Origin: a virus
Direction: 5' to 3' (one strand)
Length of the DNA: 64,000 nt
Virus record (IMG/VR): IMGVR_UViG_3300021599_002733
The position numbers and the translations under genes were made by a program. Below, piece by piece: positions 37,176-56,816 of the stretch. The notes under the pieces are model-generated. The model did no database searches. It was not told the origin of the DNA and saw only the letters and a program-made list of their open reading frames with translations. Numbering within the stretch: position 1 is the first letter of the stretch; every line of letters begins with the position of its first letter.

Positions 37176-37237
37176 GTGTTTTATCTTTAATTATGGTTTT
37201 AATATACGAACTTACCTCCATAAACCATATTCCATAG

Positions 37238-37306
37238 CCACCGAAAGCCCGGTTGCTCGGGCTCCAAGTGGAAGATAAACGGTTATGAAGCGTTGTCTTT
37301 TAATTG
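37238..37306 (-). ncRNA. Candidate antisense sRNA (UUCAUAACCGUUUAUCUU seed plus GC hairpin)
   Basis: Reverse complement of the array start motif; followed by the AGCCCG-agcaac-CGGGCT hairpin. Confidence 0.4.
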
Positions 37307-37409
37307 TGGTCAGGACAGGATTCGAACCTGTAACCCCTTATTTATTTGAGTGATTTCTAGAGGAGCTCTCTCACTTGGGGAGTGCGTCTACCAATTCCGC
37401 CACCTGACC
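37307..37409 (-). ncRNA. tRNA-like RNA (Leu-type D arm, intact acceptor stem and T arm) with non-canonical, enlarged anticodon/variable region
   Basis: GGTCAGG/CCTGACC-A acceptor; TGGCGGAATTGGTAGACGC; ACAGG-TTCGAAT-CCTGT; 103 nt. Confidence 0.75.
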
Positions 37410-37425
37410 ATATGTTGGGGGCTAT

Positions 37426-37797
37426 TTATTCTATACCACCATTGGCAGCTATTAATTCTACCAATTCAATGGATTCTGCCTCCACTTTAGCTTTAGCCGG
37501 GCGTCCACGCTTAACGGCTCCACCATTGGCTGCTGCTTTGGCTGCTAGTTCCGCTAATCGGATCTGTCTTACACTATCGGCTTTAACTGGTCGTCCAAGC
37601 TTAAGTTCACCATTGGCTTTTTTAGCCGCTAGTTCAGCTAGCCTTTGTTGTCTAACACTATCTGGATTAACTGGACGGCCTTGCTTACCCTCACCCGCTG
37701 CTTTTTTGGCTGCTAGTTCTGCCAAACGGATTTGACGAGCACTGTTTGAATTAACTGGACGACCTAATTTTGCTGTTTCTACATTTACATTTTTCAT
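37426..37797 (-). CDS. AT-hook-like (GRP) tandem-repeat protein
   Basis: Three repeats of about 28 aa (K.GRPV..DSVRQ.RLAELAAK) and a terminal KRGRP. Confidence 0.7.
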   Translation of the reverse strand: MKNVNVETAKLGRPVNSNSARQIRLAELAAKKAAGEGKQGRPVNPDSVRQQRLAELAAKKANGELKLGRPVKADSVRQIRLAELAAKAAANGGAVKRGRPAKAKVEAESIELVELIAANGGIE

Positions 37798-37817
37798 AAC
37801 CTTAATTTTTTGCTTTT

Positions 37818-38012
37818 TTAATTATACTTTAATATACGAAATTGATTTATTATCTCTAAGTCCTTATTGTCTAATTGAATAAATTTGGTTTTGGTTTCTC
37901 CCTCAAACATAACTATCCAACGTTTATTACTACCGTCTTCCCTTAAGATACTACTTACTTTTTTCAAAAACTTAATTTCAATTAAGCTAATAACATTTTT
38001 TAAATCAACCAT
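37818..38012 (-). CDS. Hypothetical protein
   Basis: ORF track; its 3' end runs through the promoter repeat. Confidence 0.55.
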   Translation of the reverse strand: MVDLKNVISLIEIKFLKKVSSILREDGSNKRWIVMFEGETKTKFIQLDNKDLEIINQFRILKYN

Positions 38013-38057
38013 TTTATCTATCTTTAATTATGGTTCAATATACGAACTCTATTTCAA

Positions 38058-38132
38058 TTAACATCTTCCCTTTAACACTATATATTTAATATAAGCAAGG
38101 GCAAAAACACATATCCACAATACCACTGTCAT
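38058..38132 (-). CDS. Hydrophobic micropeptide (24 aa)
   Basis: MTVVLWICVFALAYIKYIVLKGRC. Confidence 0.45.
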   Translation of the reverse strand: MTVVLWICVFALAYIKYIVLKGRC

Positions 38133-38133
38133 A

Positions 38134-38214
38134 CTATTTCTTTAAAGTATATTTAATAATTCCACTCCACAAGACAACATTTAATCCAATCATCATTAAC
38201 AATACTACTGTCAT
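38134..38214 (-). CDS. Hydrophobic micropeptide (26 aa)
   Basis: MTVVLLMMIGLNVVLWSGIIKYTLKK. Confidence 0.45.
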   Translation of the reverse strand: MTVVLLMMIGLNVVLWSGIIKYTLKK

Positions 38215-38215
38215 A

Positions 38216-38296
38216 TCAATCTAAAACATTAAATAAACACTCAATACATTTTACTACTCCAAGTAACAACAAAACATAAACTAAACCACTTATCAT
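38216..38296 (-). CDS. Hydrophobic micropeptide (26 aa)
   Basis: MISGLVYVLLLLGVVKCIECLFNVLD; directly after the repeat promoter and leader. Confidence 0.5.
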   Translation of the reverse strand: MISGLVYVLLLLGVVKCIECLFNVLD

Positions 38297-38338
38297 ATCT
38301 TTTATCTTTAATTATGAATCAATATACGAAATGTTTAT

Positions 38339-38647
38339 TTAAACTGCTATTCCTTTTTTATCAAGAACCCCATTCAACATAAAAACCACATCACCAAGAT
38401 ACCCATCCCTAGCCAGGTCATCCAAATCATATATTTCCTCATCCCAATATGAACCACAACAATCACATCCAAAACTTTCCAGTTTACCTAACACAACATA
38501 GTTGCCTTCAAAATTAATCCATCTGATTTTTAGTTGTAGTACTGAATCAACTGTTTCATCAGCCAATTCATCATCAAAATCAATATCTTTAATTTTTCCA
38601 AATTGTTGGAACAAATCACATGCCTCTGCAAATTCTCTAGCTGTCAT
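38339..38647 (-). CDS. Acidic hypothetical protein (CDCC motif)
   Basis: ORF track; repeat promoter. Confidence 0.6.
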   Translation of the reverse strand: MTAREFAEACDLFQQFGKIKDIDFDDELADETVDSVLQLKIRWINFEGNYVVLGKLESFGCDCCGSYWDEEIYDLDDLARDGYLGDVVFMLNGVLDKKGIAV

Positions 38648-38871
38648 AACGTTTTATCTTTTTAATTATGGTTCAATATACGAACTTTATTTATTATCAC
38701 TAAGTCCTGAAATAAAATCCAAACATTTCTGTTTTACCTTAAAACTTACCTTACACCCATCCAGGTGAAAAAAGTAACCAATCTCATTATCAAACATTAC
38801 CAAAATTCCCTTATACACAAATGTATTATTCATAACCTTTATCTTTAAATATAATTCAATATACGAACTAT

Positions 38872-39066
38872 CTATTTAAACCACTCGTCCTCATCACCAA
38901 ACCAGTTATCATCCTCCACCCGGGTGATATCACACCTTTCATACCCCTGACCTTCATATTCCATGGAACCCACAATTCGATCCACCACCCACTTGTTCTC
39001 CACCTCAAATGTTCTTCCATCGTGGGGTCCACCTATAACCTTTACAATATATTTTACCATATCCAA
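38872..39066 (-). CDS. Hypothetical protein
   Basis: ORF track. Confidence 0.55.
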   Translation of the reverse strand: MDMVKYIVKVIGGPHDGRTFEVENKWVVDRIVGSMEYEGQGYERCDITRVEDDNWFGDEDEWFK

Positions 39067-39237
39067 TTAATTAAAAGCCACTTGGTACAACACTAAAGTG
39101 GCTGCGTTCACGTCAGGTATTTCACCTAAATCTTTATTCTGAAATTTTACAATGTTGATCAGGTCTCGTCCTGTGGTTTCGCCTGTTAAAGCATGTTTCA
39201 CTGCTGATTTGTAATCTTTTTTAACTTTTGTTTTCAT
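39067..39237 (-). CDS. Hypothetical protein (56 aa, not in track)
   Basis: MKTKVKKDYKSAVKHAL...; canonical leader. Confidence 0.6.
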   Translation of the reverse strand: MKTKVKKDYKSAVKHALTGETTGRDLINIVKFQNKDLGEIPDVNAATLVLYQVAFN

Positions 39238-39311
39238 AACCTTTATCTTTAAATATGTCTTAATATACGAAAGTAGCTTTAATTAGCTACTTCCTTTTAT
39301 TATTATTTTAT

Positions 39312-39527
39312 TTAAAATTCATAAATTTCATTCCAATTCCCTTTAATATAATCAACTTCACTCATATCATCTATATAATTATAACAAAAATCAAAATAAT
39401 TCTCATATTTTATTTCTTTATCTTCCTCAAACTCATTTAAAAAATCATTTAATATTTCTTCATCTTCATAACTTTCAATAATTTCTTTTACAAAATTATA
39501 ATCTCTTACTTTAAATTTAACTTTCAT
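39312..39527 (-). CDS. Very acidic small protein (possible DNA mimic)
   Basis: D/E and aromatic rich. Confidence 0.55.
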   Translation of the reverse strand: MKVKFKVRDYNFVKEIIESYEDEEILNDFLNEFEEDKEIKYENYFDFCYNYIDDMSEVDYIKGNWNEIYEF

Positions 39528-39568
39528 AACTTTTATCTTTAAATATGTCTGAGTATACGAAAAGAGCT

Positions 39569-39925
39569 TTAATTAAGCTCTTCCTTTTTAGTAAATGTTT
39601 CAATAATTTCAATTTCAAATACCTCATAATTATGATGTTTTAATTGAGTTGTGAATTTAGGACCTGGTATATTTCTTCTTTTACCATCTTCATTTAATAT
39701 TAATTGAGAACGGTCAATAGTTGTAATATAATTTTCTAGTCCTAGATTTTCAAATGATTTAACTTGTTTAAAACGTTTTTTCTTTAAACCTGATAGGTCC
39801 CCCACTTGAAATTCTTTAAAATACCCCATAGAGATATTATGTTTATAATGATTATTTATTTCTTTAATACCTAATTCATTTAAACCATATAATTTAACCT
39901 CAATCTCTTTTTTCACTTTTCTCAT
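39569..39925 (-). CDS. Hypothetical protein
   Basis: Likely start MRKVKK after the GGTT leader. Confidence 0.6.
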   Translation of the reverse strand: MRKVKKEIEVKLYGLNELGIKEINNHYKHNISMGYFKEFQVGDLSGLKKKRFKQVKSFENLGLENYITTIDRSQLILNEDGKRRNIPGPKFTTQLKHHNYEVFEIEIIETFTKKEELN

Positions 39926-39966
39926 AACCTTTATCTTTAAATATGTCTCAATATACAAAAAGAGGC

Positions 39967-40284
39967 TTATTTAGCCTCTTCCTTTTTAGGTCTTCCTCTT
40001 TTAACTAAACCTAACTCTCTCTTACTCTCTAATTCCTTTAACCTAATCTGTCTTACACTATCTTCTTTAATAGGACGTCCTCTTCTAAGTTCTCCATTAT
40101 TTCTTTTTAATTCTAACTCTTTCAAACGTTTTTGTCTTTCACTATCTTCTTTTACAGGACGTCCTAACTTTAACTCTCCATTTTTTCTCTTACTTTCTAA
40201 CTCTTTAATCCTTTGTTGTCTTACACTGTTTTCATTAACAGGACGTCCTAATTTTTTTACTTCAATTACTTCTACTTTTTTCAT
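39967..40284 (-). CDS. AT-hook-like (GRP) tandem-repeat protein, paralog of 37426-37797
   Basis: KLGRPV.EDS.RQ.RLKELE x3 and KRGRPKK. Confidence 0.7.
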   Translation of the reverse strand: MKKVEVIEVKKLGRPVNENSVRQQRIKELESKRKNGELKLGRPVKEDSERQKRLKELELKRNNGELRRGRPIKEDSVRQIRLKELESKRELGLVKRGRPKKEEAK

Positions 40285-40352
40285 AACTTTTATTATTTAT
40301 CTTTATTTATACTTTAATATACGAATTATATCTTAATTATCTTAGTCCTTAA

Positions 40353-40550
40353 TTATTTAGTTTGATCTTCTAAAAATGATATTAACATTTTAACTTCATT
40401 TTTATTTAACTTAGCAAGAAAAGTATCAACATCTACTGTTATTGAAATTTCAACCTCATCATTTTTATCAATTTTAGAAATATTTAACATATGAAATCCT
40501 TCATCAAAGTTAAAATTTAATTCATTTTCATTTAAAATAATTTCTTTCAT
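40353..40550 (-). CDS. Hypothetical protein
   Basis: ORF track; repeat promoter. Confidence 0.6.
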   Translation of the reverse strand: MKEIILNENELNFNFDEGFHMLNISKIDKNDEVEISITVDVDTFLAKLNKNEVKMLISFLEDQTK

Positions 40551-40622
40551 AACCTTTATTATTTATTTATCTTTATTTATACTTTAATATACGAATAATA
40601 TTTTAATTTGCTTAGTCCTTAA

Positions 40623-40826
40623 TTAAAACATACCTCCATTAATTACTAATCTTCTTCTATAAATAAAGTCATCACCTGTATCTATTCCAACATTCTCTAC
40701 ATTAACATCTGTTTTTTCAATTCTATTAACATAAACAAAGTCTGTAGGATCCATTCCTGTAACAACTACTTTCAAATTCTTATTCTCTACTTTCTCTAAT
40801 ACTTCAATCAATTCTTGTACTGTCAT
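40623..40826 (-). CDS. Hypothetical protein (MTVQELIEVL-type small phage protein)
   Basis: ORF track; repeat promoter. Confidence 0.6.
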   Translation of the reverse strand: MTVQELIEVLEKVENKNLKVVVTGMDPTDFVYVNRIEKTDVNVENVGIDTGDDFIYRRRLVINGGMF

Positions 40827-40885
40827 AACTTTTATCTTTTTAATTATATTTTAATATACGAATTTTATCTTACTTATTTTAGTCC

Positions 40886-41065
40886 TTAACTATTAAATTC
40901 TTCTTTAATCGAAAAAGTAACTAAAAATTCCCCATCCATACCATCGTAATCACTCATTTCAAAACCTAATTTTTCACCTAATTCTTTCAATTGTAAACAC
41001 AATTCAATGTTTGTTTCACTGATGTGATTCAATCGTAGTCCATTTACTAAATTTTCATTCTTCAT
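40886..41065 (-). CDS. Hypothetical protein (59 aa, not in track)
   Basis: MKNENLVNGLRLNHISE...; repeat promoter. Confidence 0.55.
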   Translation of the reverse strand: MKNENLVNGLRLNHISETNIELCLQLKELGEKLGFEMSDYDGMDGEFLVTFSIKEEFNS

Positions 41066-41126
41066 AATTTTTATCTTTTAAATTTATACTGAAATATACG
41101 AACTTTAATTTAATCAACTTAGTCCA

Positions 41127-41330
41127 TTATCTCTCCATAAACCACCCAATTAATATCCCATCCACTAAATGACTTACCTCAGTTAATGTTTCACAAGTTC
41201 CTAATGAAGTATTGTATACTTGATTAATAAATATTTCCTTCCTTTCATCACTTAAAATATAATCATCATAAAATTCATCAACTAATTGATTTATAAAATT
41301 CATCAATACAATTCCATCTAACTCTTTCAT
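41127..41330 (-). CDS. Hypothetical protein
   Basis: ORF track; repeat promoter. Confidence 0.6.
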   Translation of the reverse strand: MKELDGIVLMNFINQLVDEFYDDYILSDERKEIFINQVYNTSLGTCETLTEVSHLVDGILIGWFMER

Positions 41331-41372
41331 AACTTTTTATCTTTTTAATATGCTGAAATATACGAATAATTT

Positions 41373-41525
41373 TTAATCTAAACTATTCCTTTTGTGTTTG
41401 CGTTTACGTGTGTATTGTTTTTTAGACTGAATAGTCCTCTCAACAAAGCGACCATCAAAATAACCTTGTTGCTTCTGTGATTCTCTCGTCACACTTAAAT
41501 TCATCTTAATCGTTTGCTTTTTCAT
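41373..41525 (-). CDS. Small basic protein, ArfA-like motif (50 aa, not in track)
   Basis: ...GRFVERTIQSKKQYTRKRKHK... Confidence 0.45.
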   Translation of the reverse strand: MKKQTIKMNLSVTRESQKQQGYFDGRFVERTIQSKKQYTRKRKHKRNSLD

Positions 41526-41599
41526 AAGTAAATCTAATTGATTTAATTAGCTTTCATGATACTGAATATACGAAGGTATCCTCGCAAGTACTATTCCTC

Positions 41600-42125
41600 C
41601 TTGGCAGTATGATAGCCTACACAGTTGTGTCGGCTTTTAAATTTGGAGTGTAAATACCTAACCTCCTATGTTAGTTTTCTAACCTATCGTGTCGTTTTCT
41701 ACAGTAGTGGAGGGAATGCACTTGGCCTTTATCGCACCTACGCCGTAGCACTGTTACTAGCTTCACGTTTTGGTCCATTATACATATGTCAGGGTTCAGT
41801 TTCTCACCATTCTTTCCAACATTTCTCCCCCCACCCCCACGCTTCTATACGTGAGGGGGCGGGGGTTTGTATATACTTTTGAAGTTTTATGAAAGGGGGG
41901 TGGGGGGTGTGGGGGAGGGTTGTACCCTACCACCTCCTAATCCACTATTATAGGGTCCTACTCGACACATACACTCTTATTCTCCTATTCTTATTCCCCT
42001 CGTAATCTCTCGTTTTACACACGTTATATTCCTCCTAATCGCAGATCATCGCGTTTCACTCTTAATCCACTACACTATATACTCTTGATATTCTCCTAGT
42101 TATTTTCACGTTACTCTTAGTTGAT
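41600..42125. other. Non-coding GC-rich island 2 with G-quadruplex motif
   Basis: G6-T-G6-TGT-G5-A-G3 at 41895-41919; C/G hairpin 41827-41865. Confidence 0.65.
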
Positions 42126-42221
42126 TTACACTATAATTCTCAACACTAAAGCAATAAAATGCAACACTATAACTCCTAATCCCACTATTACTGCTCCATA
42201 AAACACTACATCATCCCTCAT
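42126..42221 (-). CDS. Hydrophobic micropeptide (31 aa)
   Basis: MRDDVVFYGAVIVGLGVIVLHFIALVLRIIV. Confidence 0.4.
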   Translation of the reverse strand: MRDDVVFYGAVIVGLGVIVLHFIALVLRIIV

Positions 42222-42223
42222 AA

Positions 42224-42379
42224 TCAAAATTGAATTAGTTCTATTACGTATTCTCCCGTTTTCTTTCCATTACGTGTTATCTCGTAATTCGGATCCATTC
42301 CACTCATCATCACATCATTTATCAACTCATCCACTGTGTTGAATTCTTTCTTGTAGTAATTACAATCTAAACTATACAT
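42224..42379 (-). CDS. Hypothetical protein (51 aa, not in track)
   Basis: MYSLDCNYYKKEF...GMDPNYEI; repeat promoter. Confidence 0.55.
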   Translation of the reverse strand: MYSLDCNYYKKEFNTVDELINDVMMSGMDPNYEITRNGKKTGEYVIELIQF

Positions 42380-42450
42380 TTTCTTTCTTATTTATACTGA
42401 AATATACGATCTCTCCTTTATATCTTCTATTCCTCTATCTTTATTGCTTT

Positions 42451-42654
42451 TTATTTAAATGTTTTGTTATAGTATTCTTCTGCTGAATTATAATCGCCTT
42501 TAGTTAATGAGTTTATCCAAGCATCTTTTATTTGTTGTTTCTCCATTTCCTTAGCTTGATCAATAATGTCCTGCTTCATTGATTCAGGTAAATACCACCA
42601 ATCCGGAGCACTCATTTCATTTAGTAACCATTCTACTGCTGATATATTTTCCAT
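42451..42654 (-). CDS. Small phage protein, AVEWL...AKEMEK family; paralog of 54438-54743
   Basis: Shared motifs EWL, EMEK, AE.YYN.TFK. Confidence 0.65.
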   Translation of the reverse strand: MENISAVEWLLNEMSAPDWWYLPESMKQDIIDQAKEMEKQQIKDAWINSLTKGDYNSAEEYYNKTFK

Positions 42655-42702
42655 AACTGTTTTTCTTTTATACCTGAATATACGAAATTTATTTTATATT
42701 TT

Positions 42703-42903
42703 CTATTCCTCAATTGATTCTATAAATTTGGTTTGAGTGAGTATTTCTGTTTCCCATTCCATACTTTCTTCTACTTCTTCTCCTTCACCACGTTCTTCTC
42801 CAAACATGATTATTTGCTCTGCTTCTTCTTTTGAATTAGCTTCAACAATATATTGTATTGTTTTTGTTGATTTTACTTCTGTTGTGATTCTAAATACTTT
42901 CAT
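42703..42903 (-). CDS. Small acidic protein (EANS.EEA), paralog of 43589-43795
   Basis: ORF track. Confidence 0.6.
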   Translation of the reverse strand: MKVFRITTEVKSTKTIQYIVEANSKEEAEQIIMFGEERGEGEEVEESMEWETEILTQTKFIESIEE

Positions 42904-42953
42904 AACCTTTATCTTTATTTATACTTTAATATACGAAATTTTAATTAAAAAAC

Positions 42954-43184
42954 TTAGTCCTTTAAATCTTTAATATAATCTCTAATTTCAATAGCACTTT
43001 CATAATCCTCTATATCTGAGAGTAATGCGTATTCTAATATATCGGTTAGTAGTGCTATAAAATCTCCTTTATGTTTATGTTCAAGTTGATCTTGCAAAAA
43101 TAATTTTTGTTTCCAAGGAATATTTGAGTTGTATATTTCCGGATGCATTTTATTTTTCCACAGTAATTTAATAGCCTCATCCAT
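42954..43184 (-). CDS. Hypothetical protein with UVR-like C-terminus
   Basis: EDYESAIEIRD. Confidence 0.55.
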   Translation of the reverse strand: MDEAIKLLWKNKMHPEIYNSNIPWKQKLFLQDQLEHKHKGDFIALLTDILEYALLSDIEDYESAIEIRDYIKDLKD

Positions 43185-43242
43185 ATTATCTACTTTTTAT
43201 TATTTCTCTACTTTCTATCTTTTATACCTTAATATACGATTT

Positions 43243-43551
43243 CTATTTTATGATTACTATTCCCTTCTCTATCATGCTATTGATCTTGGTTTTGATTTGC
43301 TCAATACCAAATGTTTCGTCTTGATATTCCGATCCTGCTATTTCTATAGCAAATTCCTCTATTGAATTAAACTCATTGTCACTATAACACTCATTAATGT
43401 ACATCCCCATATCTAAAATGTGTTGATCATTTTGGGATAGCTCGTGATAATCAACTTCATCTAAATTATTTGCATCTAAAAAATCAATATCAAACAAATT
43501 GTTTAATACGTCATGTTTTTCTTGGCCGATTTTTGTAAATTCTAATTTCAT
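43243..43551 (-). CDS. Acidic hypothetical protein
   Basis: ORF track; repeat promoter. Confidence 0.6.
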   Translation of the reverse strand: MKLEFTKIGQEKHDVLNNLFDIDFLDANNLDEVDYHELSQNDQHILDMGMYINECYSDNEFNSIEEFAIEIAGSEYQDETFGIEQIKTKINSMIEKGIVIIK

Positions 43552-43588
43552 AACTTTTATCTCTTTAATTTGATTGAATATACGAAAT

Positions 43589-43795
43589 TTATTTTAATTT
43601 TCTTCTTCCTTTTAACTGCTCCTCTACTGTGATTACTTCGGTTTGCCAATGTATGTTTTCTCTAAGGTTTATCCCTTCTTCTCTATGTTCCCCGGTTTGT
43701 AGTTGATATAGGGCTTCCTCTAACGAATTCGCTTCAATTTCATATTCAAATACTATTGTTTGCTCTACTTCTGTTTCGAATCTAAACTTTTTCAT
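43589..43795 (-). CDS. Small protein (EANS.EEA)
   Basis: Paralog of 42703-42903. Confidence 0.6.
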   Translation of the reverse strand: MKKFRFETEVEQTIVFEYEIEANSLEEALYQLQTGEHREEGINLRENIHWQTEVITVEEQLKGRRKLK

Positions 43796-43797
43796 AA

Positions 43798-44031: not shown

Positions 44032-44092
44032 AACCTTTATTTTTTCTTTTATACTTGAATATACGAAAGCCCCTTTAATTTGGGGCTTCCTT

Positions 44093-44395: not shown

Positions 44396-44446
44396 AACTT
44401 TTATTTTTTTAATTTGATTGAATATACGAAATTTATTTTAAATAAC

Positions 44447-49332: not shown

Positions 49333-49393
49333 AACTTTTATTTTTCTTATTTATACTACAATATACGAAAGATATTTCAAATATTCTATTCCT

Positions 49394-49747: not shown

Positions 49748-49801
49748 AACCTTTATTTTTATACTTTAATATACGAAAGATATTTCAAATATTCTATTCC
49801 T

Positions 49802-50020: not shown

Positions 50021-50021
50021 C

Positions 50022-50258
50022 TTATTCATCTTCAAATTCCATACACACTACCATATATTCAGGTAGATATTCTACTTGTCCAGCACACTCATTGTACTTT
50101 GGATACTCCTCGTTTTCTAGCATTTCAAAATAACATTTTTCATCGTGTATGTACAGCAGTCTACCTTTTAGTGTTGGAAACACATTGCTATTTGTTACTT
50201 TTCCTATCACATCATGTGCTTTAGAGATAAGTTGGATACGTTCAGTTACTCCCCTCAT
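50022..50258 (-). CDS. Hypothetical protein
   Basis: ORF track. Confidence 0.55.
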   Translation of the reverse strand: MRGVTERIQLISKAHDVIGKVTNSNVFPTLKGRLLYIHDEKCYFEMLENEEYPKYNECAGQVEYLPEYMVVCMEFEDE

Positions 50259-50655
50259 CGTCTTCTTTATCTAAATTAATCCAACCTTTTGTTTCTATAT
50301 GTTTTAGAAACGCTCTAAATTCATCTATACCCTCTTGATCCATCATTTCACGAGCATCTATCATTGACTCTTCAACGTTATGAAATACACCTCTCATCCA
50401 TATAGGATTATCTGAGGAATCTTTTTTCCAATTATCATAATCACCACTTCGTTTATCTGTAAATTCAATGCTAACATCTGGATACAATGTTTCACAGTCA
50501 TCTCTGAATATCATTATTGCTTCAAAGCAATAGTTACTTGTTTCGTAGATACAGTTTATAGTGTTTGTGAGTTGATGTGGTTCTAGGGGTTTGATTTGTA
50601 GTTGTTCTTCTCGAACGTACCATACACCATCAATTTGAATTCTATCTTTACTCAT
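50242..50655 (-). CDS. Hypothetical protein
   Basis: ORF track. Confidence 0.6.
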   Translation of the reverse strand: MSKDRIQIDGVWYVREEQLQIKPLEPHQLTNTINCIYETSNYCFEAIMIFRDDCETLYPDVSIEFTDKRSGDYDNWKKDSSDNPIWMRGVFHNVEESMIDAREMMDQEGIDEFRAFLKHIETKGWINLDKEDDEGSN

Positions 50656-50724
50656 AACTTTTATTTTTATACATTGAATATACGAAAGAGGAGATTACTC
50701 TCCTCTTCCTTTTATTCTATTTTT

Positions 50725-51477
50725 TTAAACTGCTAGAGCATATTGATCTGCTAGAGCAAACAATCGTTGATTTAACAATATATCTTGATTGAAATTTGAT
50801 ACATTTGCTGTTAGCGATTCTTGAATTCTGTTGAACACTGTCCACACATCATTACCTTCATCCTCTATTCGATTAACTCGTAGTATTTCTTCAACGTCTG
50901 CATCTGTAACATCATCAAAACGTAAACGAGCTGCTTGAAAAGCAAACTTCTTCATATCATCTATTGATAGTTGCTTGCGCTTCATCTCATTGATTTCTTC
51001 AGCTAATATAATTGCTTTATTATTTAATTTAGCAATGATTTGAGGTAGCTCTCTATAATTAATTTCAGTATGTTTAATTTGAGATTCAGCTGCTCTATCA
51101 AATCGAACTGCTCCGTTTGAACATACTAAACGAAATGCTCCTAAATCCATATTGAGTGGTTGAACTCCATTACAACTATTTGATAATGTAATAGATGCTA
51201 ATGCTTCTGTTTTACCTTTGTTGTTTAATATAGAAAAATCAGGATGATGCATCTGAACATAGTTGGAAGATACTTTACGATTTTTTCCTTTTTGTTCTGC
51301 TACACCTTTCAACTGCCAGCCCTCATTTTGTAGTCGCTGTACAACATCAAGAGTATCAATATAAAACGGTTTTTGTTTGATTCGTTGAACATTTTTAATG
51401 TTGTTTGAATCTAATGTGTTTGCGAACGCAATCGCTTTGTTGATATCGTTATCAACAGGAATAAATTTGTACTTCAT
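50725..51477 (-). CDS. DUF932/DUF945 family protein (divergent copy)
   Basis: LSNS.NG...GAFRLVCSNG...H...W.VFNRIQE.L. Confidence 0.8.
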   Translation of the reverse strand: MKYKFIPVDNDINKAIAFANTLDSNNIKNVQRIKQKPFYIDTLDVVQRLQNEGWQLKGVAEQKGKNRKVSSNYVQMHHPDFSILNNKGKTEALASITLSNSCNGVQPLNMDLGAFRLVCSNGAVRFDRAAESQIKHTEINYRELPQIIAKLNNKAIILAEEINEMKRKQLSIDDMKKFAFQAARLRFDDVTDADVEEILRVNRIEDEGNDVWTVFNRIQESLTANVSNFNQDILLNQRLFALADQYALAV

Positions 51478-51539
51478 ATCATTTATCTTTTAAATTTATA
51501 CTTGAATATACGAAAGGGAGATTGCTCTCCCTATTCCTT

Positions 51540-52343
51540 TTATTCTTCTTCTTGATTAAAAGCGTAATGCACTCCGTCCTTGTAGATCGAAAAGAATATT
51601 TTAAAATCTTTATCGCAATCTCGATTCTTTTCAAAGTGTAGTGTTCTCTCAAGTCCATCTTTACTTCGTTCTACTTTACAAAACGCTTCCATCATATGCT
51701 TTAATCTTTGGGACCCTGCAAATTCATCGCTTTTAGTTACTTGTTGAATGTTGATAAATGATGTATAGTATCCAGGTTTGTTTTTACCTTTTTTAACATT
51801 GTCTTGTAGAGCTAAGAACCATGATTCTGCTTGTTTTGAAGTACCTCCGTTTTGATCTTTATACATATCTAAAATTTCAGCTACAGAATCAACTGCTATT
51901 ACATCATATCCTAAGTTAAAAACATGTTCAACTGTTTCTTTGATGTTTTCCATATAATCTTTCAAAAACAACGTTTGAACGCAACCAAACGCTGGCATTC
52001 TTCTACAGTATTTGTAATGTCCGATTTGATCCATTTCTCCTTGTACTAGCAAACATTTTAGTCCTTGCATTGTAAATTTAGATAACATATCCATTACTAG
52101 TGTTGATTTACCTGAACCTGGTCCTCCTGCTATCATCATTGAAGTGCCTGGCATTAAACCGCCTTCAGTAGATAAGATAATATCTATTTCTGTATTTGTT
52201 TTTAAAGGAACGAATAGCGATTCATTGAACTTTAAATCGTTTCCTCTAAATAGTTTGATTTGAGATAAATCAATTTCTTTTCTTTCTACTTGTTTTTTAG
52301 GACGTCCTCTTCTTTCCACTTTTAATACATTTACGTTTTTCAT
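51540..52343 (-). CDS. RecA-superfamily ATPase, RadA/Sms-like, with N-terminal AT-hook
   Basis: RRGRPKK; GGPGSGKST; VDSV; QVTK...AGS..L.HM; KNR. Confidence 0.8.
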   Translation of the reverse strand: MKNVNVLKVERRGRPKKQVERKEIDLSQIKLFRGNDLKFNESLFVPLKTNTEIDIILSTEGGLMPGTSMMIAGGPGSGKSTLVMDMLSKFTMQGLKCLLVQGEMDQIGHYKYCRRMPAFGCVQTLFLKDYMENIKETVEHVFNLGYDVIAVDSVAEILDMYKDQNGGTSKQAESWFLALQDNVKKGKNKPGYYTSFINIQQVTKSDEFAGSQRLKHMMEAFCKVERSKDGLERTLHFEKNRDCDKDFKIFFSIYKDGVHYAFNQEEE

Positions 52344-52408
52344 AACCTTTTGCTTTTTAAATTTATACTATAATATACGAACTTTCTTTTAAATCTTCTA
52401 TTCCTCTT

Positions 52409-52636
52409 TTATTTTCCATATGTTTGCTCCCACACCTCAGCGCCTGTTCTATTATCGTGTTGTGGCCAATTTTCGTTGTATCCTGGGTTGCTTAGGTGCA
52501 TTATAATAGCTATAATTGTGTTTAGCCAAAAGAAAATAAAGTATTTTCCGAAATGACCTTTGATATACCATTGAATGAACCAAACAAACAATGCTATTAC
52601 TATAAATGAGCTTATAAGATTCCAAATTGCTTTCAT
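52409..52636 (-). CDS. Small membrane protein
   Basis: Two hydrophobic segments. Confidence 0.6.
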   Translation of the reverse strand: MKAIWNLISSFIVIALFVWFIQWYIKGHFGKYFIFFWLNTIIAIIMHLSNPGYNENWPQHDNRTGAEVWEQTYGK

Positions 52637-52683
52637 ATTCTAAATATACGAATTTTCTTTTAAATATTCTATTCCTTTTATAA

Positions 52684-52731
52684 AGACAACAATGGAGCAG
52701 CTGGCACTGCTCCTTTAGTTTGTTGTTGTCT
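52684..52731. terminator. Long intergenic hairpin
   Basis: AGACAACAA..GGAGCAG-ctggca-CTGCTCC..TTGTTGTCT. Confidence 0.5.
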
Positions 52732-52735
52732 GCTT

Positions 52736-53536
52736 TTAATTTGCAAACTCAAGCGCCAATTCAAACAATTCTTTGTTTACTTTCAAGTCTTGATTGAAGT
52801 TTTTAATTCTTCGCGCTTTGCGGCTTTTGTTACCTGCATTATAGTTGAAATCACCTTCAATGATTTTTTCTTGTATTACATTGAATATTGACCATAGATC
52901 AGTTCCTTTATCCTCTGGTCGAGTTGGCTCAAGCAATAGCTTAGCATCAATTGTAATTCGTGTCATTTCCTCCTCTGTAAAGCGAGTAGCTAGAGCACGT
53001 GTTGCTAGCTCAACTGCTTGCTCTTCATCCAATTGAGTTTGTTTCATTTTATTCATTGATTCAACTGTTAGAGGTAAACGCTCAACCATCTCTTTGATTT
53101 TTGCTTGCAATTCCTCAAATGTATAGCCCATATGACGCAATTTTACATTTTCGAATTCTGTAGTGGAGATAACCAATCCATTTTCACATACCAAACGAAA
53201 CAAACCAGCTGTGAATGTAAATGAATTTTTTCCGTCATGGCTATTTGTCAATAGAATTTGTGGAAACACTGTATCACCATCAGAGCCATTGATTACAATA
53301 TCATTGTTTCTAAACACTACTAGGTGTTTTTGGAAGCCAACACCTTTTCTTGCTTTGACTTGTTTAGCATCTACAACTCCCCATCCAAGTTGAGCCATAT
53401 CATCAATCACTTGTGATGTTGGAATGTGTGTATAAGCAGATGATACATTTGTTGCTGCTGTAGCTGTAAATACACTTGGTGCTGCATTTTTAATGTCGCT
53501 TTTTGACAAGAATTCTGAATTTTCTAAATTTAACAT
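52736..53536 (-). CDS. DUF932/DUF945 family protein
   Basis: APSVF; Y..IPT; LTNSHDG; GLFRLVCENG; LW..FNVIQE. Confidence 0.9.
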   Translation of the reverse strand: MLNLENSEFLSKSDIKNAAPSVFTATAATNVSSAYTHIPTSQVIDDMAQLGWGVVDAKQVKARKGVGFQKHLVVFRNNDIVINGSDGDTVFPQILLTNSHDGKNSFTFTAGLFRLVCENGLVISTTEFENVKLRHMGYTFEELQAKIKEMVERLPLTVESMNKMKQTQLDEEQAVELATRALATRFTEEEMTRITIDAKLLLEPTRPEDKGTDLWSIFNVIQEKIIEGDFNYNAGNKSRKARRIKNFNQDLKVNKELFELALEFAN

Positions 53537-53598
53537 ACCTTTATTTTTTTAATTATACTTCAATATACGAACTTTCTCCTGTGAATCCAATTCCTCTT

Positions 53599-54168
53599 TT
53601 AATCCCACCAACGATTTATTTGTTGGTTCAATATTTTGAATAGTAGTTTAAGGGAACGATCTTGGTTTTCAAGTGCCACTTCCATTGCTATCTCTTGTTT
53701 GTCTTTTTGCTCTATTGGTCTGTTAAAACGGTTTATCTCTCCTGTCATAACCCGCTTATGTTGTCTAGGATATTTGGCTAGATATTCATCGTAGTTTTCC
53801 CATATCAAAGTATCCTCCATTGAAAACCATTGTTGTGTCTCGTCTGTTGGAACAAATTCATATTCTTTTTTAAAGTAATCCATATACTCAGAATGGTATA
53901 GATCTTCCTGTTGTATTCTACATAGGCGAGCACACAATAACATCAATTCAGCATCTCGGTTTGCACTAACATGTATGCCTTTTTCCAAAATATATTTGGC
54001 TTGTTTTTCTAGTTTAACTCGTAGCACCTCGTAGATGTAGTGATGGTCATAGTCTCTATCTTTCCATATGGTTGGTAGCCAATGGATTATGTTTTTGATA
54101 CCTCTGTAGATATCTTTGTGGTAATATTTACCTTCAAATTTCCACCATCGTTGAATTCGTCCTAACAT
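53599..54168 (-). CDS. Conserved phage hypothetical (W.DRDYD...WWD)
   Basis: ORF track. Confidence 0.65.
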   Translation of the reverse strand: MLGRIQRWWKFEGKYYHKDIYRGIKNIIHWLPTIWKDRDYDHHYIYEVLRVKLEKQAKYILEKGIHVSANRDAELMLLCARLCRIQQEDLYHSEYMDYFKKEYEFVPTDETQQWFSMEDTLIWENYDEYLAKYPRQHKRVMTGEINRFNRPIEQKDKQEIAMEVALENQDRSLKLLFKILNQQINRWWD

Positions 54169-54169
54169 C

Positions 54170-54436
54170 TTATTCTGATTTAATTCTTTTTAATACATAA
54201 AATCCACCACTTGCTACATTATATCCAAACTCAAGATTGTTTTCAATAAGGAATGACATAACCATTTCTTTTTCTTCTGGTGTTAGATTAATGCATTCAT
54301 AGTTTTGAACATCTCTTAACTCATCTATTGCAGTTTGTGTCCCAACTCTTAATCCTGCTGAGTAGTTTGAATCTCTTATTGATTTTATATAATCATCAAC
54401 TACATTTGGCTTTGGCTTTCTATACTTTCCAAACAT
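54170..54436 (-). CDS. Hypothetical protein
   Basis: Likely start MFGKY, which avoids the overlap. Confidence 0.55.
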   Translation of the reverse strand: MFGKYRKPKPNVVDDYIKSIRDSNYSAGLRVGTQTAIDELRDVQNYECINLTPEEKEMVMSFLIENNLEFGYNVASGGFYVLKRIKSE

Positions 54437-54437
54437 C

Positions 54438-54743
54438 TTATTCTGATTTAAAGGTTTCGTTGTAGTATTGTTCTGCATTTCCAACTGGATTTGATATTTT
54501 TTCAATTCTATCTCTTGTTCCTTTATCATATCCATCATCCCAAGCGTTATGCACTTCGTCTTTCTCCATTTCTAGGGCTTTCTCAAATAGTTCTTTATGA
54601 GTTATATCAATGTTTTTTAACTCTTGCATCAACCACTCTAGTGCTGTCTGTTTCATATTTGCTCTTTTAATTTGTGGTATAACCACGTTTTCAAATATCT
54701 CTTTTAATTTAGGTTTGAATTCTTCTGGGTCTAGAAAAGGCAT
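54438..54743 (-). CDS. Small phage protein, MKQTA.EWL family
   Basis: Paralog of 42451-42654. Confidence 0.6.
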   Translation of the reverse strand: MPFLDPEEFKPKLKEIFENVVIPQIKRANMKQTALEWLMQELKNIDITHKELFEKALEMEKDEVHNAWDDGYDKGTRDRIEKISNPVGNAEQYYNETFKSE

Positions 54744-54744
54744 G

Positions 54745-55026
54745 TTATTTTTTCTTTTTACTACAGTTTCCTCTTGCAAAATCATCTATTGATTTAACTC
54801 CACACTCACATTTTTGAGCATCAACATCAAACATACAACCTTTAATACCTGCTTTCTTGTTCTCTACCCAAACAGCTCGCTCTGCCTCTATTGGTGATAC
54901 GTTTCCTTCAGGATAAACGGTGTGAGATATTCTGATGCGTCGTTTTATCTCTACTGGTTTTTTACATAACATTCCTATATGTCTGAGCCAAAGTAGGAAT
55001 TTTGTTTTGATGTTTCGTTTTCTCAT
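54745..55026 (-). CDS. Hypothetical protein, Cys-containing
   Basis: ORF track. Confidence 0.55.
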   Translation of the reverse strand: MRKRNIKTKFLLWLRHIGMLCKKPVEIKRRIRISHTVYPEGNVSPIEAERAVWVENKKAGIKGCMFDVDAQKCECGVKSIDDFARGNCSKKKK

Positions 55027-55027
55027 G

Positions 55028-55255
55028 TTAGTCGTTAAATGTTAAACCTTGTTCATTCATATTTCCACGTAAAAACTCTCTAACTTTCTCTAGAGCTTCA
55101 TATACTTCTCCTGTTACCTTGTCGTTGTATTTTAGCTCTGAGCGGAGATGTTGATCCACATCCCATGCTAACATTTGCCATTTCCAACCGTTGAGAGCAG
55201 ACTCCATGTCTATTCTATCTTCGTTTGGGTCAAATTCTAAAATTACTTTTGCCAT
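55028..55255 (-). CDS. Hypothetical protein
   Basis: ORF track. Confidence 0.6.
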   Translation of the reverse strand: MAKVILEFDPNEDRIDMESALNGWKWQMLAWDVDQHLRSELKYNDKVTGEVYEALEKVREFLRGNMNEQGLTFND

Positions 55256-55488
55256 TACTTTATCATTTTAATATTTCCTGTTGGTATTTGTATTTTCTTT
55301 CCCTCGCATGTAACAACGTATGTCATCCCATTCCGGTAAGATGTTGTCTCGTGAGCTTGAATGGATGTTTCATCGTGTAAAATCACTATTTTATCGCATT
55401 CTTTTTTACGTTTAATGGAATATATTCCTATCATTGTAAACACTCCCACTACAAGTGAAAATGCCATAATTGAAATTGCATCTTTCAT
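55255..55488 (-). CDS. Membrane-anchored small protein
   Basis: N-terminal TM. Confidence 0.55.
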   Translation of the reverse strand: MKDAISIMAFSLVVGVFTMIGIYSIKRKKECDKIVILHDETSIQAHETTSYRNGMTYVVTCEGKKIQIPTGNIKMIK

Positions 55489-55692
55489 AACTTTTATTTT
55501 AATTTAATATACGAAAACTATTTTATTTCTCCAATTCCTCCCAATCAGAGTATTTACCATTTACTTTTACTCTATATTTGTATTTACTTAATCTAGAGCA
55601 CATAGCTAAAAATTCCCCTTCAAACCAAATGTGGGTATATCTCTTTTCAAAATCAGAGAAACAATTTCTAACTTTCACTTTATCTCCTCGTT

Positions 55693-56442
55693 TCAAATCC
55701 ATTCTATCTCGTTTGTAATGTTATCCCACTCAAAATTAAATGGTGAATGTGCATATGAATATCTTTCATCCAACACAGATGCGTTTATAAAATGTGTGTG
55801 ACCATCAAAATAGTGTCCCCAACTTCCATGAATATGTCCAAACACATGTATTTTTGGTTTGATTTGATCCACTCGATATCGAAGCATTTCACAACCAACT
55901 CGAATTGTGCTTCCACCTGGTATATCTAGGTGTCCGTAAGGTGGTCCGTGTGTAATTAGTATGTCTGTATTTTCGGGTATAGCATCCCATTTTGTTTTCA
56001 TTTCTTCTCCGTTTCGAGGTAAATTGAAAGCCCAATTGAAGAATTCGGGTTGCCAAGGCGAGCCATAGATGCGAATATTTTCTTCTGGTATGTCTCCGTT
56101 TGGGCCATCATAGTATAGGGCTAGTTCCTCGTCTTGTAGATACTCTATTGTTTTATATCCTGTTAGTATACCTTTTGCCTCTTCTGGTTTGTCTTGCATC
56201 CAACGGTCGTGGTTTCCAGCGATAAATATTTTAGTGTTGTAGTTGTCTATTTCATCAAACCATTTGAAAAACATCATTGCCTCCATTGGATTATATCCAC
56301 TGTTCATAAAATCACCTGCGTGGATAAGAATATCTCCACCGGGTAGATCCAACGGTTGATTACTTTTACGTAACGATTTTGACGTTGTAAGTTGATTGTG
56401 TTTAGTGTGTGTGTCTGAAATTAATGTGATTTTTGTTTTCAT
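55693..56442 (-). CDS. Metallophosphoesterase (calcineurin-like, MPPED/239FB-type)
   Basis: SDTH; HAGD; GNHD; THGPP; FGHIH. Confidence 0.92.
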   Translation of the reverse strand: MKTKITLISDTHTKHNQLTTSKSLRKSNQPLDLPGGDILIHAGDFMNSGYNPMEAMMFFKWFDEIDNYNTKIFIAGNHDRWMQDKPEEAKGILTGYKTIEYLQDEELALYYDGPNGDIPEENIRIYGSPWQPEFFNWAFNLPRNGEEMKTKWDAIPENTDILITHGPPYGHLDIPGGSTIRVGCEMLRYRVDQIKPKIHVFGHIHGSWGHYFDGHTHFINASVLDERYSYAHSPFNFEWDNITNEIEWI

Positions 56443-56465
56443 AACCTAAATATATGAAATTTTAT

Positions 56466-56816
56466 TTAAATATCCTCTTCCTCCTCTAAGCCATCCATTA
56501 AAGTTACATCCCAAATGGATATATCATCATCATCTTCATCCCAATACCCATTTACATAAATTCTATATAACTCGAGTGTTGTATAGTATGTTCCTGTACC
56601 ATCAGGTACAACCCAACATGCAGATCTTTCTTCATCATACCCAGGTATAACATTTTTTTTCAAAATCCAATCTCCAAATTGTATAGCGGATTCTTGTCTA
56701 GCTCTAAACGTGTCTACTGTTTTGAATGCTTGTTTTGCTTCTGCTCTACGTTTGAGTTCATTCCATTCTTGCTCTGATAAAGCATCTATGAGTATGTCTA
56801 GAGTTTGTTTATCCAT
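56466..56816 (-). CDS. Hypothetical protein
   Basis: ORF track. Confidence 0.6.
   Translation of the reverse strand: MDKQTLDILIDALSEQEWNELKRRAEAKQAFKTVDTFRARQESAIQFGDWILKKNVIPGYDEERSACWVVPDGTGTYYTTLELYRIYVNGYWDEDDDDISIWDVTLMDGLEEEEDI

Follow-up and report, generated by a model that had tools for sequence, protein, structure and literature searches.

Promoter-early stem-loop (PeSL) cassettes have been described in the T4-type phages RB49/phi1, T4/PST and KVP40/nt-1 (PMC2839356, PMC4122927). The array reported here resembles them in its short, apparently composite promoter-plus-terminator repeats, concentrated in a hyperplastic region where they flank small ORFan genes, in an A-rich tract 5′ of the promoter, in the lack of a dedicated recombinase and in the way relatives vary: cassettes are inserted, deleted, replaced or reordered, and the breakpoints fall in the repeats. 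The likeness is one of sequence. Middle promoters of phage T4 offer a second point of reference: they keep the −10 element of early promoters and swap the −35 element for a MotA box, through sigma appropriation by MotA and AsiA. Integron cassette arrays, like the array reported here, consist of co-oriented small accessory genes, separated by repeats and variable in content between relatives. Here, we describe the array found in a 64,000-nucleotide viral sequence (IMG/VR record IMGVR_UViG_3300021599_002733, analysed over its whole length and hereafter called the window).

Layout of the array and anatomy of its units

The minus strand carries 42 co-oriented copies of the core TTCGTATATT (≤1 mismatch) between positions 36424 and 57379, about 21 kb in which each element heads one to three small genes; only one exact copy was found on the plus strand of the window. 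At ≤1 mismatch, the whole window yields 55 sites, against 10.8 ± 3.9 expected. The region from 34.5 to 57.4 kb holds 63 minus-strand open reading frames (ORFs), or about 1.5 genes for each element. A preliminary description of this DNA had reported a co-oriented array of about 40 units, each preceding one to three small ORFs, and these counts bear it out; the array does occupy the span given there (37201–56482), but reaches about 0.8 kb further at each end. The features are as follows (hairpin energies in kcal/mol).

36424–57379, minus strand: the array as a whole, in which 42 composite promoter elements accompany about 60 small ORFs of the same orientation
57370–57379, minus strand: first unit, at the upstream extreme of the array; TTG-type, with TTG at −19 to −17 and without GGA
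56449–56458, minus strand: GGA-type unit with variant core TTCATATATT
55506–55515, minus strand: hybrid unit with both boxes (GGAATTGG)
53562–53571, minus strand: hybrid unit with both boxes (GGAATTGG); heads DUF932 gene 52736–53536
52643–52652, minus strand: GGA-type unit
52372–52381, minus strand: GGA-type unit; heads KaiC/RecA-like ATPase gene 51540–52343
51505–51514, minus strand: GGA-type unit, spacer hairpin (−13.2); heads DUF932 gene 50725–51477
50677–50686, minus strand: GGA-type unit, spacer hairpin (−17.5)
47818–49777, minus strand: four GGA-type units, cores 49768, 49360, 48608 and 47818 (hairpin −13.2)
46134–47437, minus strand: four GGA-type units, cores 47428 (hairpin −9.4), 47186 (−6.3), 46707 and 46134 (hairpin −10.2)
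44058–45812, minus strand: five GGA-type units, cores 45803, 45338 (hairpin −16.5), 44954 (−15.3), 44421 and 44058 (−16.5)
42401–43586, minus strand: five GGA-type units, cores 43577, 43231 (ATCG variant), 42928, 42677 and 42401 (ATCG variant)
40316–41574, minus strand: six GGA-type units, cores 41565, 41357, 41093, 40853, 40586 and 40316, several with a common GGACTAAG spacer subtype
39262–39959, minus strand: three GGA-type hairpin units, 39950 (TTTG variant, −13.7), 39552 (TATACT variant, −10.7) and 39262 (−13.4), mutually 83% identical over 70 nt
37201–38867, minus strand: six GGA-type units, cores 38858, 38675, 38321, 38037, 37831 and 37201
36424–36433, minus strand: last, most downstream unit; TTG-type
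61310–61319, minus strand: lone TTG-type member of this promoter family (AGTTGG-N16-TTCTTATATT), away from the array; heads a non-coding RNA/tRNA cluster
4812–4821, minus strand: isolated TTG-type variant (TTTGTATATT), preceded immediately by a GC hairpin and a T-run; heads gene 3456–4793

A unit spans about 70 nt and forms a compact regulatory cassette that lies directly 3′ of the preceding gene’s stop codon. An A-rich tract with the GGA box is followed by a 20-nt spacer, the near-invariant core and a conserved leader, A-rich and about 25 nt long, that ends in (A/G)GTT-ATG; A-A at +11/+12 and (T)ATAAA at +14 to +19 are moderately conserved. Numbered from the first T of TTCG in the core, GGA occupies −23 to −21 (G in 40/42 copies at −23 and at −22, A in 42/42 at −21), which is the GGA-N22-CG spacing noticed earlier. 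It lies exactly 20 nt 5′ of the core in 40 of the 42 copies, and the exact pattern GGA-N20-TTCGTATATT gave 35 matches, against none in 100 shuffles.

The elements are strictly confined to one strand and to intergenic DNA, at a set distance from the start codon (27–45 nt 3′ of the core in 36/42 copies, most commonly 34–37 nt), and they make up almost all of the intergenic DNA of the array; outside it, genes run in long, nearly gapless operons. Their anatomy and placement are promoter-like, as first proposed. The array is a hyperplastic block, neighboured by the tRNA/837-aa gene region and by a conserved HD-phosphohydrolase/sigma-like/baseplate block. Median identity among the 42 repeats is 56% and exact shared runs have a median of 11 nt, the longest in-register ones reaching 34 nt. 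Identity over 70 nt rises to 84% between neighbours, and spacer subfamilies (GGACTAAG..., GGAATAGAA... and hairpin types) are present.

The preliminary description supposed that host-takeover or anti-defence genes may be enriched in the cargo, in which only about six of the 63 ORFs match any Pfam family. The cargo had also been called unrelated, which holds for most genes, but not for a pair of DUF932 paralogues and two further families that are likewise duplicated. Judged by its sequence, the phage is an uncultured myophage related to Flavobacterium phage immuto (vB_FspM_immuto, MW353176), and its host is most likely Flavobacterium or a related genus. The 837-aa GEVED protein encoded next to the array has cellular homologues that come nearly all from Flavobacterium or other Bacteroidota, in keeping with the Bacteroidota phage first suspected. 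By analogy with other large lytic phages, the array is probably an early-expressed accessory region.

Arrays in relatives and in immuto

Relatives G001, G003, G004 and G005 each possess one such array, with 24–36 exact cores on a single strand, versus 0–3 in controls (G002 being a fragment of the phage that G001 represents), and the GGA consensus is common to the arrays of these metagenomic relatives. Immuto has a syntenic array at 60.9–76.2 kb, with 23 units reading AGTTG(C/G)-N16-TTCnTATATTTAG; the literature searched contained no description of its promoters. In both phages, the small-gene array leads on to an HD phosphohydrolase, a sigma-like gene and baseplate genes, and both have the core TTCnTATATT, a similar leader ending in GTT-ATG and occasional spacer hairpins (only 2/24 elements in immuto). 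The immuto core is more degenerate, its leader has a different conserved sequence (TAGGTATCAATAATTAAAAC) and no GGA-type units occur: instead, TTG at −19 to −17 (the sigma-A −33 type) is followed after 20 nt by TAtaTTTa, in the layout of Bacteroidota sigma-A promoters.

Two upstream boxes and embedded hairpins

The Bacteroidota sigma-A consensus has TAnnTTTG at −12 to −5 (PMC9723704). TATATT in the core agrees with this −7 box at its first six positions (6/8 in interior units). About 38 interior units have the GGA box and lack the −33 TTG, whereas both ends of the array have TTG at the sigma-A −33 position, some 4 nt downstream of where GGA lies; TTG is also used by the isolated sites at 61319 and 4821, and two units carry both boxes. 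The same arrangement of TTG ends and GGA interior recurs in G001, G003 and G004, and GGA is nearly invariant in diverged relatives, while adjacent bases vary. Beyond the preliminary description, we propose two putative promoter classes, GGA-type and TTG-type. Five Flavobacterium genomes show no enrichment of the bipartite motif and canonical TTTG-N17-21-TAnnTTTG sites in the window are at chance level, so it is not secure that unmodified host sigma-A holoenzyme recognises the elements; candidate readers of the GGA box are the C-terminal domain of polymerase alpha, through an UP-like element, and a phage factor.

A further addition is an apparent terminator hairpin within the spacer of the promoter. 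Eleven of the 42 units have a strong GC hairpin there (−9 kcal/mol or stronger), with stems that differ in sequence but share one location and extend into GGAA and TTTC, complementary tetramers at opposite ends of the spacer. We counted 20 terminator-like sites, where 4.7 were expected. As the hairpin sits within the spacer, terminator and next promoter would share the same DNA, and read-through RNA from the upstream gene would end in the hairpin followed by UUUCGUAUAUU. A stable hairpin is absent from 26 of the 39 interior units, which nevertheless retain GGA and core, and at several positions spacer pairing is not significantly above shuffles. We infer promoter and terminator activity from this anatomy and from the cultured relative immuto.

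Turnover of cassettes among relatives

The array shares 31–39% of its genes with each of the three closer relatives and 11% with the most distant. Single-copy shared genes were collinear in 10/15, 13/19 and 11/16 cases in the array, versus 9/10, 10/11 and 10/11 in the flanks; about one-third of shared array genes are thus out of order. One relative with a closer flank aligns unbroken over 8.7 kb of flank, yet has only four array segments in common. Taking breakpoints as the ends of segments ≥80% identical, 56 of 104 fell within −40 to +55 of a core, versus a background of 15.6%, these 104 HSP ends not being independent events; in the closest pair (95–97% identity), segments end at −28, −34, +29 and +41 to +46. 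Transposed cassettes keep the promoter–gene–promoter structure. Gene-plus-promoter units thus appear to be reshuffled, gained and lost among related phages, and the PeSL analogy drawn in the preliminary description gains from this; the relatives did not display a stable gene order with breakpoints outside the repeats, and the idea survives the comparison. Where only one neighbouring gene of an element is conserved, element similarity is slightly raised (0.59–0.61 vs 0.45–0.51 for random pairs), which fits crossovers inside the element and also fits fast turnover.

Interpretation and alternative explanations

We read the block, with a probability of about 0.68, as a promoter–terminator cassette array, a hyperplastic accessory region whose cassettes would be shuffled via repeat homology. 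At every unit, host RNA polymerase would start about 7 nt past TATATT, and each group of one to three small genes would thereby form its own short transcription unit, with the GGA box taking the place of the −33 TTG seen at the array ends and in immuto. The 42 repeats would serve as dispersed homology for the phage’s general recombination, which would duplicate, delete, transpose and exchange promoter-plus-gene cassettes between co-infecting relatives, an outcome equal to that of T4-type PeSL elements. A tentative alternative, which we hold to be on the unlikely side, is that GGA-type units form a separate temporal class whose AAAGGA box is read by a phage activator or remodelled sigma factor, not by unmodified host polymerase; only the TTG-type end units would then be immediate-early, and the cassette architecture would be unaffected. 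Two upstream boxes on one core in four phages, the near-invariance of GGA, the motif’s absence from host genomes and an immuto array without GGA-type units all suit this idea. However, no candidate activator was identified, and the sole sigma-like gene, which looks like a T4 gp55-type late sigma factor, also occurs in immuto (46% identity) and Mel-JY01 (37%), both without the GGA type. Moreover, the A-tract together with GGA conforms to AAAAAARNR, the consensus of the proximal UP subsite in E. coli (PMC4132738), a sequence that the alpha subunit could read without a phage factor, and concerted evolution of the repeats could spread one variant without functional difference. It is improbable that the element acts mainly as RNA and not as a promoter, serving a few long transcripts as a terminator, RNase processing site or translation-control leader: complementary spacer ends, 11 strong hairpins and a leader conserved up to the start codon would be expected of it, but hardly the many hairpin-free interior units, the spacer pairing no better than shuffles at several positions or homologous immuto elements with sigma-A-type boxes at correct spacing and so few hairpins.

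The breakpoints do not prove that the repeat is a recombination substrate, because nearly all intergenic DNA of the array is the element and any exchange preserving whole genes breaks there. An ordinary dense promoter array, with repeats alike through tuning to the same polymerase and turnover produced by horizontal acquisition and illegitimate recombination under selection that keeps genes intact, would involve no special homologous exchange via the repeat; it agrees with the short exact runs and with a backbone order still discernible among relatives. We nonetheless consider it unlikely, since spacer subfamilies, high identity between neighbours and long exact runs indicate duplication or conversion of the elements themselves, transposed cassettes preserve their structure and the same behaviour has been experimentally shown for PeSLs (PMC2839356). 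The integron-like mechanism first suggested, with a site-specific recombinase moving cassettes by acting on the repeat, seems very improbable: the resemblance is a superficial one of layout (co-oriented cassettes split by a repeat, some copies palindromic), whereas a search for Phage_integrase-family (tyrosine recombinase) genes gave no match in the complete 166-kb relative, in G005 or in immuto (14/14 control genomes matched), the repeat lies 5′ of genes and hairpins occur in only a quarter of units.

Comparison with known systems

With no integrase in the complete relative or immuto, the array resembles PeSL elements, not integrons; it lacks attC-type sites and a common Pc promoter, and each cassette appears to bring its own promoter. 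With T4 middle promoters it would share, by analogy only, the principle of a second class that keeps a host-type −10 element beneath a phage-specific upstream box; no MotA or AsiA homologue was identified, and the GGA box precedes the TTG position by about 4 nt, whereas the MotA box is at −30. Compared with PeSLs, the array belongs to another host phylum (Bacteroidota) and another phage lineage (Immutovirus-like), and its interior promoters depart from the host consensus, with GGA in place of the −33 TTG and a near-invariant 10-mer core. Its hairpin, found in only about a quarter of units, lies inside the promoter spacer, so that its U-tract would be the promoter core, whereas the PeSL hairpin lies upstream of the promoter; and its 42 elements form one contiguous array in 21 kb, where PeSLs occupy several scattered regions. 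We suggest that the array represents PeSL-like cassette shuffling in a Bacteroidota phage, with a changed promoter box and an embedded hairpin.

Layout of the array

With up to one mismatch allowed, the window contains 55 copies of the near-invariant 10-mer core of the repeated element, TTCGTATATT, where 10.8 would be expected; 42 of them sit on the minus strand, spanning 36424–57379, and the plus strand has a single exact copy. The bipartite pattern GGA-N20-TTCGTATATT gave 35 exact matches in the window and none in 100 shuffles, which bears out the fixed GGA-to-core spacing of the preliminary description; the array reported there is real, spacing included, its coordinates having been set slightly short at both ends. 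We regard this as a real and highly non-random array of predicted promoter cassettes with partly embedded putative terminators, and it is from the sequence that we infer promoter activity, terminator activity, early timing and the host polymerase as reader. Aligned on the core (first base = 0), the coding-strand consensus runs as follows.

Consensus of the array element, minus strand
Upstream of GGA, minus: A-rich tract
-23..-21, minus: GGA (G 40/42, G 40/42, A 42/42)
Directly 3′ of GGA, minus: (A/C)(T/G)A
Up to the core, minus: variable spacer, with TAAA near -10..-7
0..9, minus: core TTCGTATATT, each position conserved in at least 40/42
Downstream of the core, minus: n-A-A, then (T)ATAAA at 14..19, then an A-rich leader

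The first annotated start codon follows the core by 27–45 nt in 36 of the 42 units. Median identity between units is 56% over 70 nt (background 29%), rising to 84% between neighbours, whose exact in-register matches extend to 34 nt and which fall into recognisable spacer subfamilies. A simple gene call placed 63 minus-strand ORFs in 34.5–57.4 kb; outside the array, genes are tightly packed in long operons and intergenic DNA is nearly nil. Plus-strand GC skew within the array (38000–48000) falls to -0.48, the coding strand there being strongly G-rich and C-poor, far beyond the structural region.

Cargo and neighbouring features

Among the cargo genes, Pfam recognised only DUF932 (twice), a T5orf172/MUG113 domain, a metallophosphoesterase and a KaiC/RecA-like ATPase, while PHROGs assigned the cargo mostly to families of unknown function. 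Several further features lie within or near the array.

Features within and near the array
19832–25906, minus: 2024-aa ORF amid tail/baseplate genes
32746–33474, minus: gene for a 242-aa sigma-like protein, ~3 kb downstream of the array, near structural genes
37307–37409, minus: match to the Rfam tRNA family at 44.7 bits, interrupted at the anticodon region by 42 inserted nt, in a 250-nt array gap
41575–42125, minus: non-coding island of ~550 nt within the array
57401–59914, minus: gene for an 837-aa protein with GEVED and T9SS-associated galactose-binding-like domains, adjoining the array
60015–60829, minus: tRNA genes Ala-TGC, Ser-TGA and Glu-TTC, just upstream of the array

The tRNA-like match at 37307–37409 was not called by ARAGORN. 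The non-coding island is richer in G+C and contains six TAGGAG(G/A) repeats as well as long runs of C and of G; no Rfam family matched it, and its fold z-score was -0.6. It is partly conserved in two relative loci, L216 (78%) and L113, and is resembled by a GC-rich gap at ~74.2–74.4 kb in the cultured Flavobacterium phage vB_FspM_immuto (MW353176; hereafter immuto). No Pfam or PHROG match was found for the 2024-aa ORF, which has a homologue of 2034 aa in L216. Between its baseplate genes (16064–16900) L216 also carries a GIY-YIG homing-endonuclease-like gene that is absent from the window (~27403–27434).

Phage identity and relatives

By megablast, neither the array nor the 2024-aa gene matched any of 50,697 phage records, among which relatives are visible at the protein level only. 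The window, a partial genome, encodes a baseplate wedge protein whose counterparts in immuto, a 160-kb myovirus, and in the Microcystis phage Mel-JY01 are 45.6% and 43.8% identical, respectively. Cellular homologues of the 837-aa protein (up to ~57% identity in segments) come nearly all from Flavobacterium or other Bacteroidota; this protein is probably host-derived and a useful pointer to the host. Together with the immuto-like baseplate wedge, these homologues uphold the earlier assignment to a Bacteroidota phage.

Scanning IMG/VR with the bipartite motif yielded at least 118 loci; at least 51 loci carry three or more copies, 43 of them from that scan, and the many-copy contigs are 66–80% identical to the window in a patchy manner. 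Four metagenomic relatives (G001, G003, G004 and G005) have one array each, with 24–36 exact cores on one strand within 16–22 kb (0–3 in controls). G001 is a complete genome of 166 kb, and G002 is a fragment of the same phage. The GGA consensus is common to all large relatives. In immuto the array is syntenic, its small genes being followed by an HD phosphohydrolase, a small ORF, the sigma-like gene and baseplate genes. The array lies in the hyperplastic region of a Flavobacterium-type myophage, and its architecture is kept throughout an abundant uncultured clade. A crAss-like virion RNA polymerase with early promoters was considered and dropped, the neighbouring genes being those of a myovirus baseplate; a search for T7-type RNA polymerase found no match, but the control genomes gave none either, so that this search is uninformative.

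Gene shuffling among relatives

Clustering of proteins across the window and four relatives showed the downstream flank to be collinear in all five. Of the window's array genes, 31–39% have a homologue in any one of the three closer relatives and 11% in the most distant, and the shared genes kept their order as tabulated.

Collinear single-copy shared genes, window against each relative
G001: array 10/15; flank 9/10
G003: array 13/19; flank 10/11
G004: array 11/16; flank 10/11

Rearrangements include a DUF932 copy on the opposite side of a pair of genes (75-aa and RecA-like), two gene families (5 and 6) that have exchanged places, and another (14) displaced by ~20 genes. A relative that aligns over 8.7 kb unbroken in the flank (76% identical) has just four short array segments in common.

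Of 104 ends of segments sharing 80% identity or more, 56 lay within -40..+55 of a core (background 15.6%), although these HSP ends are not independent and the repeat is almost the sole intergenic DNA in the array. With the flanks collinear, this agrees with the gene gain and loss at repeat breakpoints that had been proposed as a check. In the closest pair, G001 and the relative locus L089 (95–97% identical), segments end at -28, -34, +29 and +41..+46, and one exchanged segment is precisely promoter–gene–promoter. We infer homologous recombination through the repeat from these patterns, the compared genome pairs being too diverged for individual recombination junctions to be read.

Hairpins within the predicted promoter spacer

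A GC-rich hairpin of -9.4 to -17.5 kcal/mol (cut-off -9 or stronger) fills the spacer in 11 of 42 units. Stems extend into the conserved GGAA and TTTC and vary in sequence from unit to unit, with constant geometry. In these 11 units RNA from the upstream gene would end with the hairpin followed by TTTCGTATATT/UUUCGUAUAUU, and an independent terminator scan of the array called 20 sites (4.7 expected), many of them spacer hairpins. Of the 39 interior units, 26 lack a stable hairpin and still have GGA, which is therefore not kept merely as the base of a stem. On the plus strand (37500–57400), several spacer hairpins run into CCTTTT(T/A), which is complementary to the A-tract plus GGA; such sites, called by the terminator scan, could also stop antisense transcription.

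Two upstream boxes on one core

Two kinds of unit share the core: GGA-type units, with the box at -23..-21 from it, and TTG-type units, with TTG at -19..-17.

Units with TTG
61310–61319, minus: TTG-type promoter-like unit heading the tRNA/ncRNA cluster
57379, minus: first array unit, TTG-type
55515 and 53571, minus: units with both boxes, GGAATTGG
36433, minus: last array unit, TTG-type
4821, minus: variant unit with TTG-type position

Across the array the order is TTG, ~35 GGA, TTG, and this order recurs in G001, G003 and G004. In immuto 23 array units read AGTTG(C/G)-N16-TTCnTATATTTAG. The sigma-A consensus of Flavobacterium and other Bacteroidota has TAnnTTTG at -12..-5 and, some 19–21 nt upstream, TTG at -33 (PMC9723704). 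Setting the TATATT of immuto at -12..-7 places TTG at -35..-33 and yields the box TAtaTTTa, near that consensus; TTG stands 20 nt upstream of the -7-type box in 24 of 24 immuto units and in five window units. All window units have the core TATATTnA, agreeing with TAnnTTTG at 6 of 8 positions, and TTG occupies the -33 position in 5 of 43; the other 38 have GGA only, 4 nt further upstream. The immuto homologues do match the host primary-sigma promoter consensus, whereas the 38 interior GGA units of the window do not. We conclude that the core is best read as a -7 box of the sigma-A type, extended on its 5′ side by a phage-specific TTCG.

In the same register GGA lies at -39..-37. The proximal UP subsite of E. 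coli promoters occupies -46..-38. Its consensus is AAAAAARNR (PMC4132738), to which the A-tract plus GGA bears a resemblance. An ECF-type promoter, with an AAC-type -35 and CGT in its -10, would account for the CGT within the core and the GGA(A/C) upstream, but GGAAx-to-CGT is 20 nt against 16–17 nt in ECF promoters, TTG-type units carry the same core as GGA-type units, and the relatives showed no match to the ECF-type region-4 domain (Sigma70_r4_2). Five Flavobacterium genomes show no enrichment of the bipartite motif, which is not decisive against an ECF promoter because host ECF regulons are small. Within the window, the canonical Bacteroidota promoter patterns, TTTG-N17-21-TAnnTTTG and TAnnTTTG alone, occur at chance level.

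We tentatively propose, with a probability of roughly one in five, that the GGA box marks a second, phage-specific promoter class, to which a putative phage factor redirects the polymerase from TTG, and that the 70-nt element serves as portable homology for cassette trade. Such a system would parallel, for Bacteroidota, the sigma appropriation of T4, and would operate in an abundant aquatic clade of Flavobacteriia phages; an element with a terminator folded into its promoter spacer would let co-infecting phages swap ready-to-express cassettes. Our search of the literature on the motif, Flavobacterium phage promoters and immuto found no description of these elements.

The sigma-like protein

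The 242-aa sigma-like protein (32746–33474) is kept in all relatives, in immuto (46%) and in Mel-JY01 (37%), and has thousands of metagenomic homologues without annotation. Sequence matches are weak (Sigma70_r2, PF04542, E 0.05; an RpoE-like family, E 0.008); its profile matched no PDB sequence, and Foldseek returned nothing at E 0.001 or better. The structure model (pLDDT 74.5) has a second helical domain besides a sigma region-2 fold. Its best structural match is 7d7d_F, from the T4 gp45-dependent activation complex (Z 10.5, rmsd 3.0, 96 residues); we take chain F to be gp55, the entry title naming no chain. About 30 further sigma region-2 domains follow, SigB tying at the same Z, and sigma domains emerged from this wide structural alignment only. 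The modelled region-2 fold is firm, and likeness to gp55 is tentative. The protein is probably a phage late sigma factor, a role more likely for it than reading the array promoters: immuto and Mel-JY01 possess it and lack GGA-type units, so it is unlikely to be what reads GGA. Within the window, the T4 late motif TATAAATA is confined to five array units and never lies upstream of the structural operons, and so gives no handle on the late promoter.

Significance

Bacteroidota phage promoter grammar is nearly unmapped, and this phage group is very abundant in the environment, given that the sigma-like protein alone has metagenomic relatives in the thousands. The predicted elements define promoter and terminator for the group in exact and testable terms, which would help annotation and the building of genetic tools in Flavobacteria; their putative overlap of terminator and promoter is a compact design. 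TTG and GGA on one core form a natural promoter-class pair through which a new mode of RNA polymerase recruitment in Bacteroidota could come to light. The ~60 unknown cassette genes per phage, mostly differing between relatives, are a pool in which to search for host-takeover and counter-defence functions. The array is also evidence that shuffling in the style of the promoter-early stem-loop cassettes (PeSLs) of T4-type phages extends beyond T4-like phages of Proteobacteria and cyanobacteria.

Comparison with known systems

The preliminary description had likened the array to both integrons and PeSLs. It is not an integron: the tyrosine recombinase family PF00589 had no match in complete G001, G005 or immuto (14 of 14 control genomes matched), and, where integron cassettes lack promoters, end in attC sites and depend on a single Pc, each unit here bears its own promoter-like element 27–45 nt upstream of a start codon.

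Nor is it a strict member of the PeSLs, because, unlike theirs, its interior promoter-like units deviate from the host primary-sigma consensus and its hairpin sits inside the promoter spacer, and because its activities are predicted ones. In its reconstructed evolution, however, the array behaves like the PeSLs of T4, whose pattern has been described (PMC2839356, PMC4122927) and in which crossovers between adjacent repeats yield cassette mini-circles. Unstable content and order, breakpoints at the repeat, unit subfamilies and the lack of a tyrosine recombinase match in complete G001 and in immuto, taken together, make up that pattern. As with PeSLs, the units are gathered in one 21-kb hyperplastic block beside small ORFs (57 of 63 without a Pfam family), and differences between related phages have their junctions in the repeats, here nearly the sole intergenic DNA.
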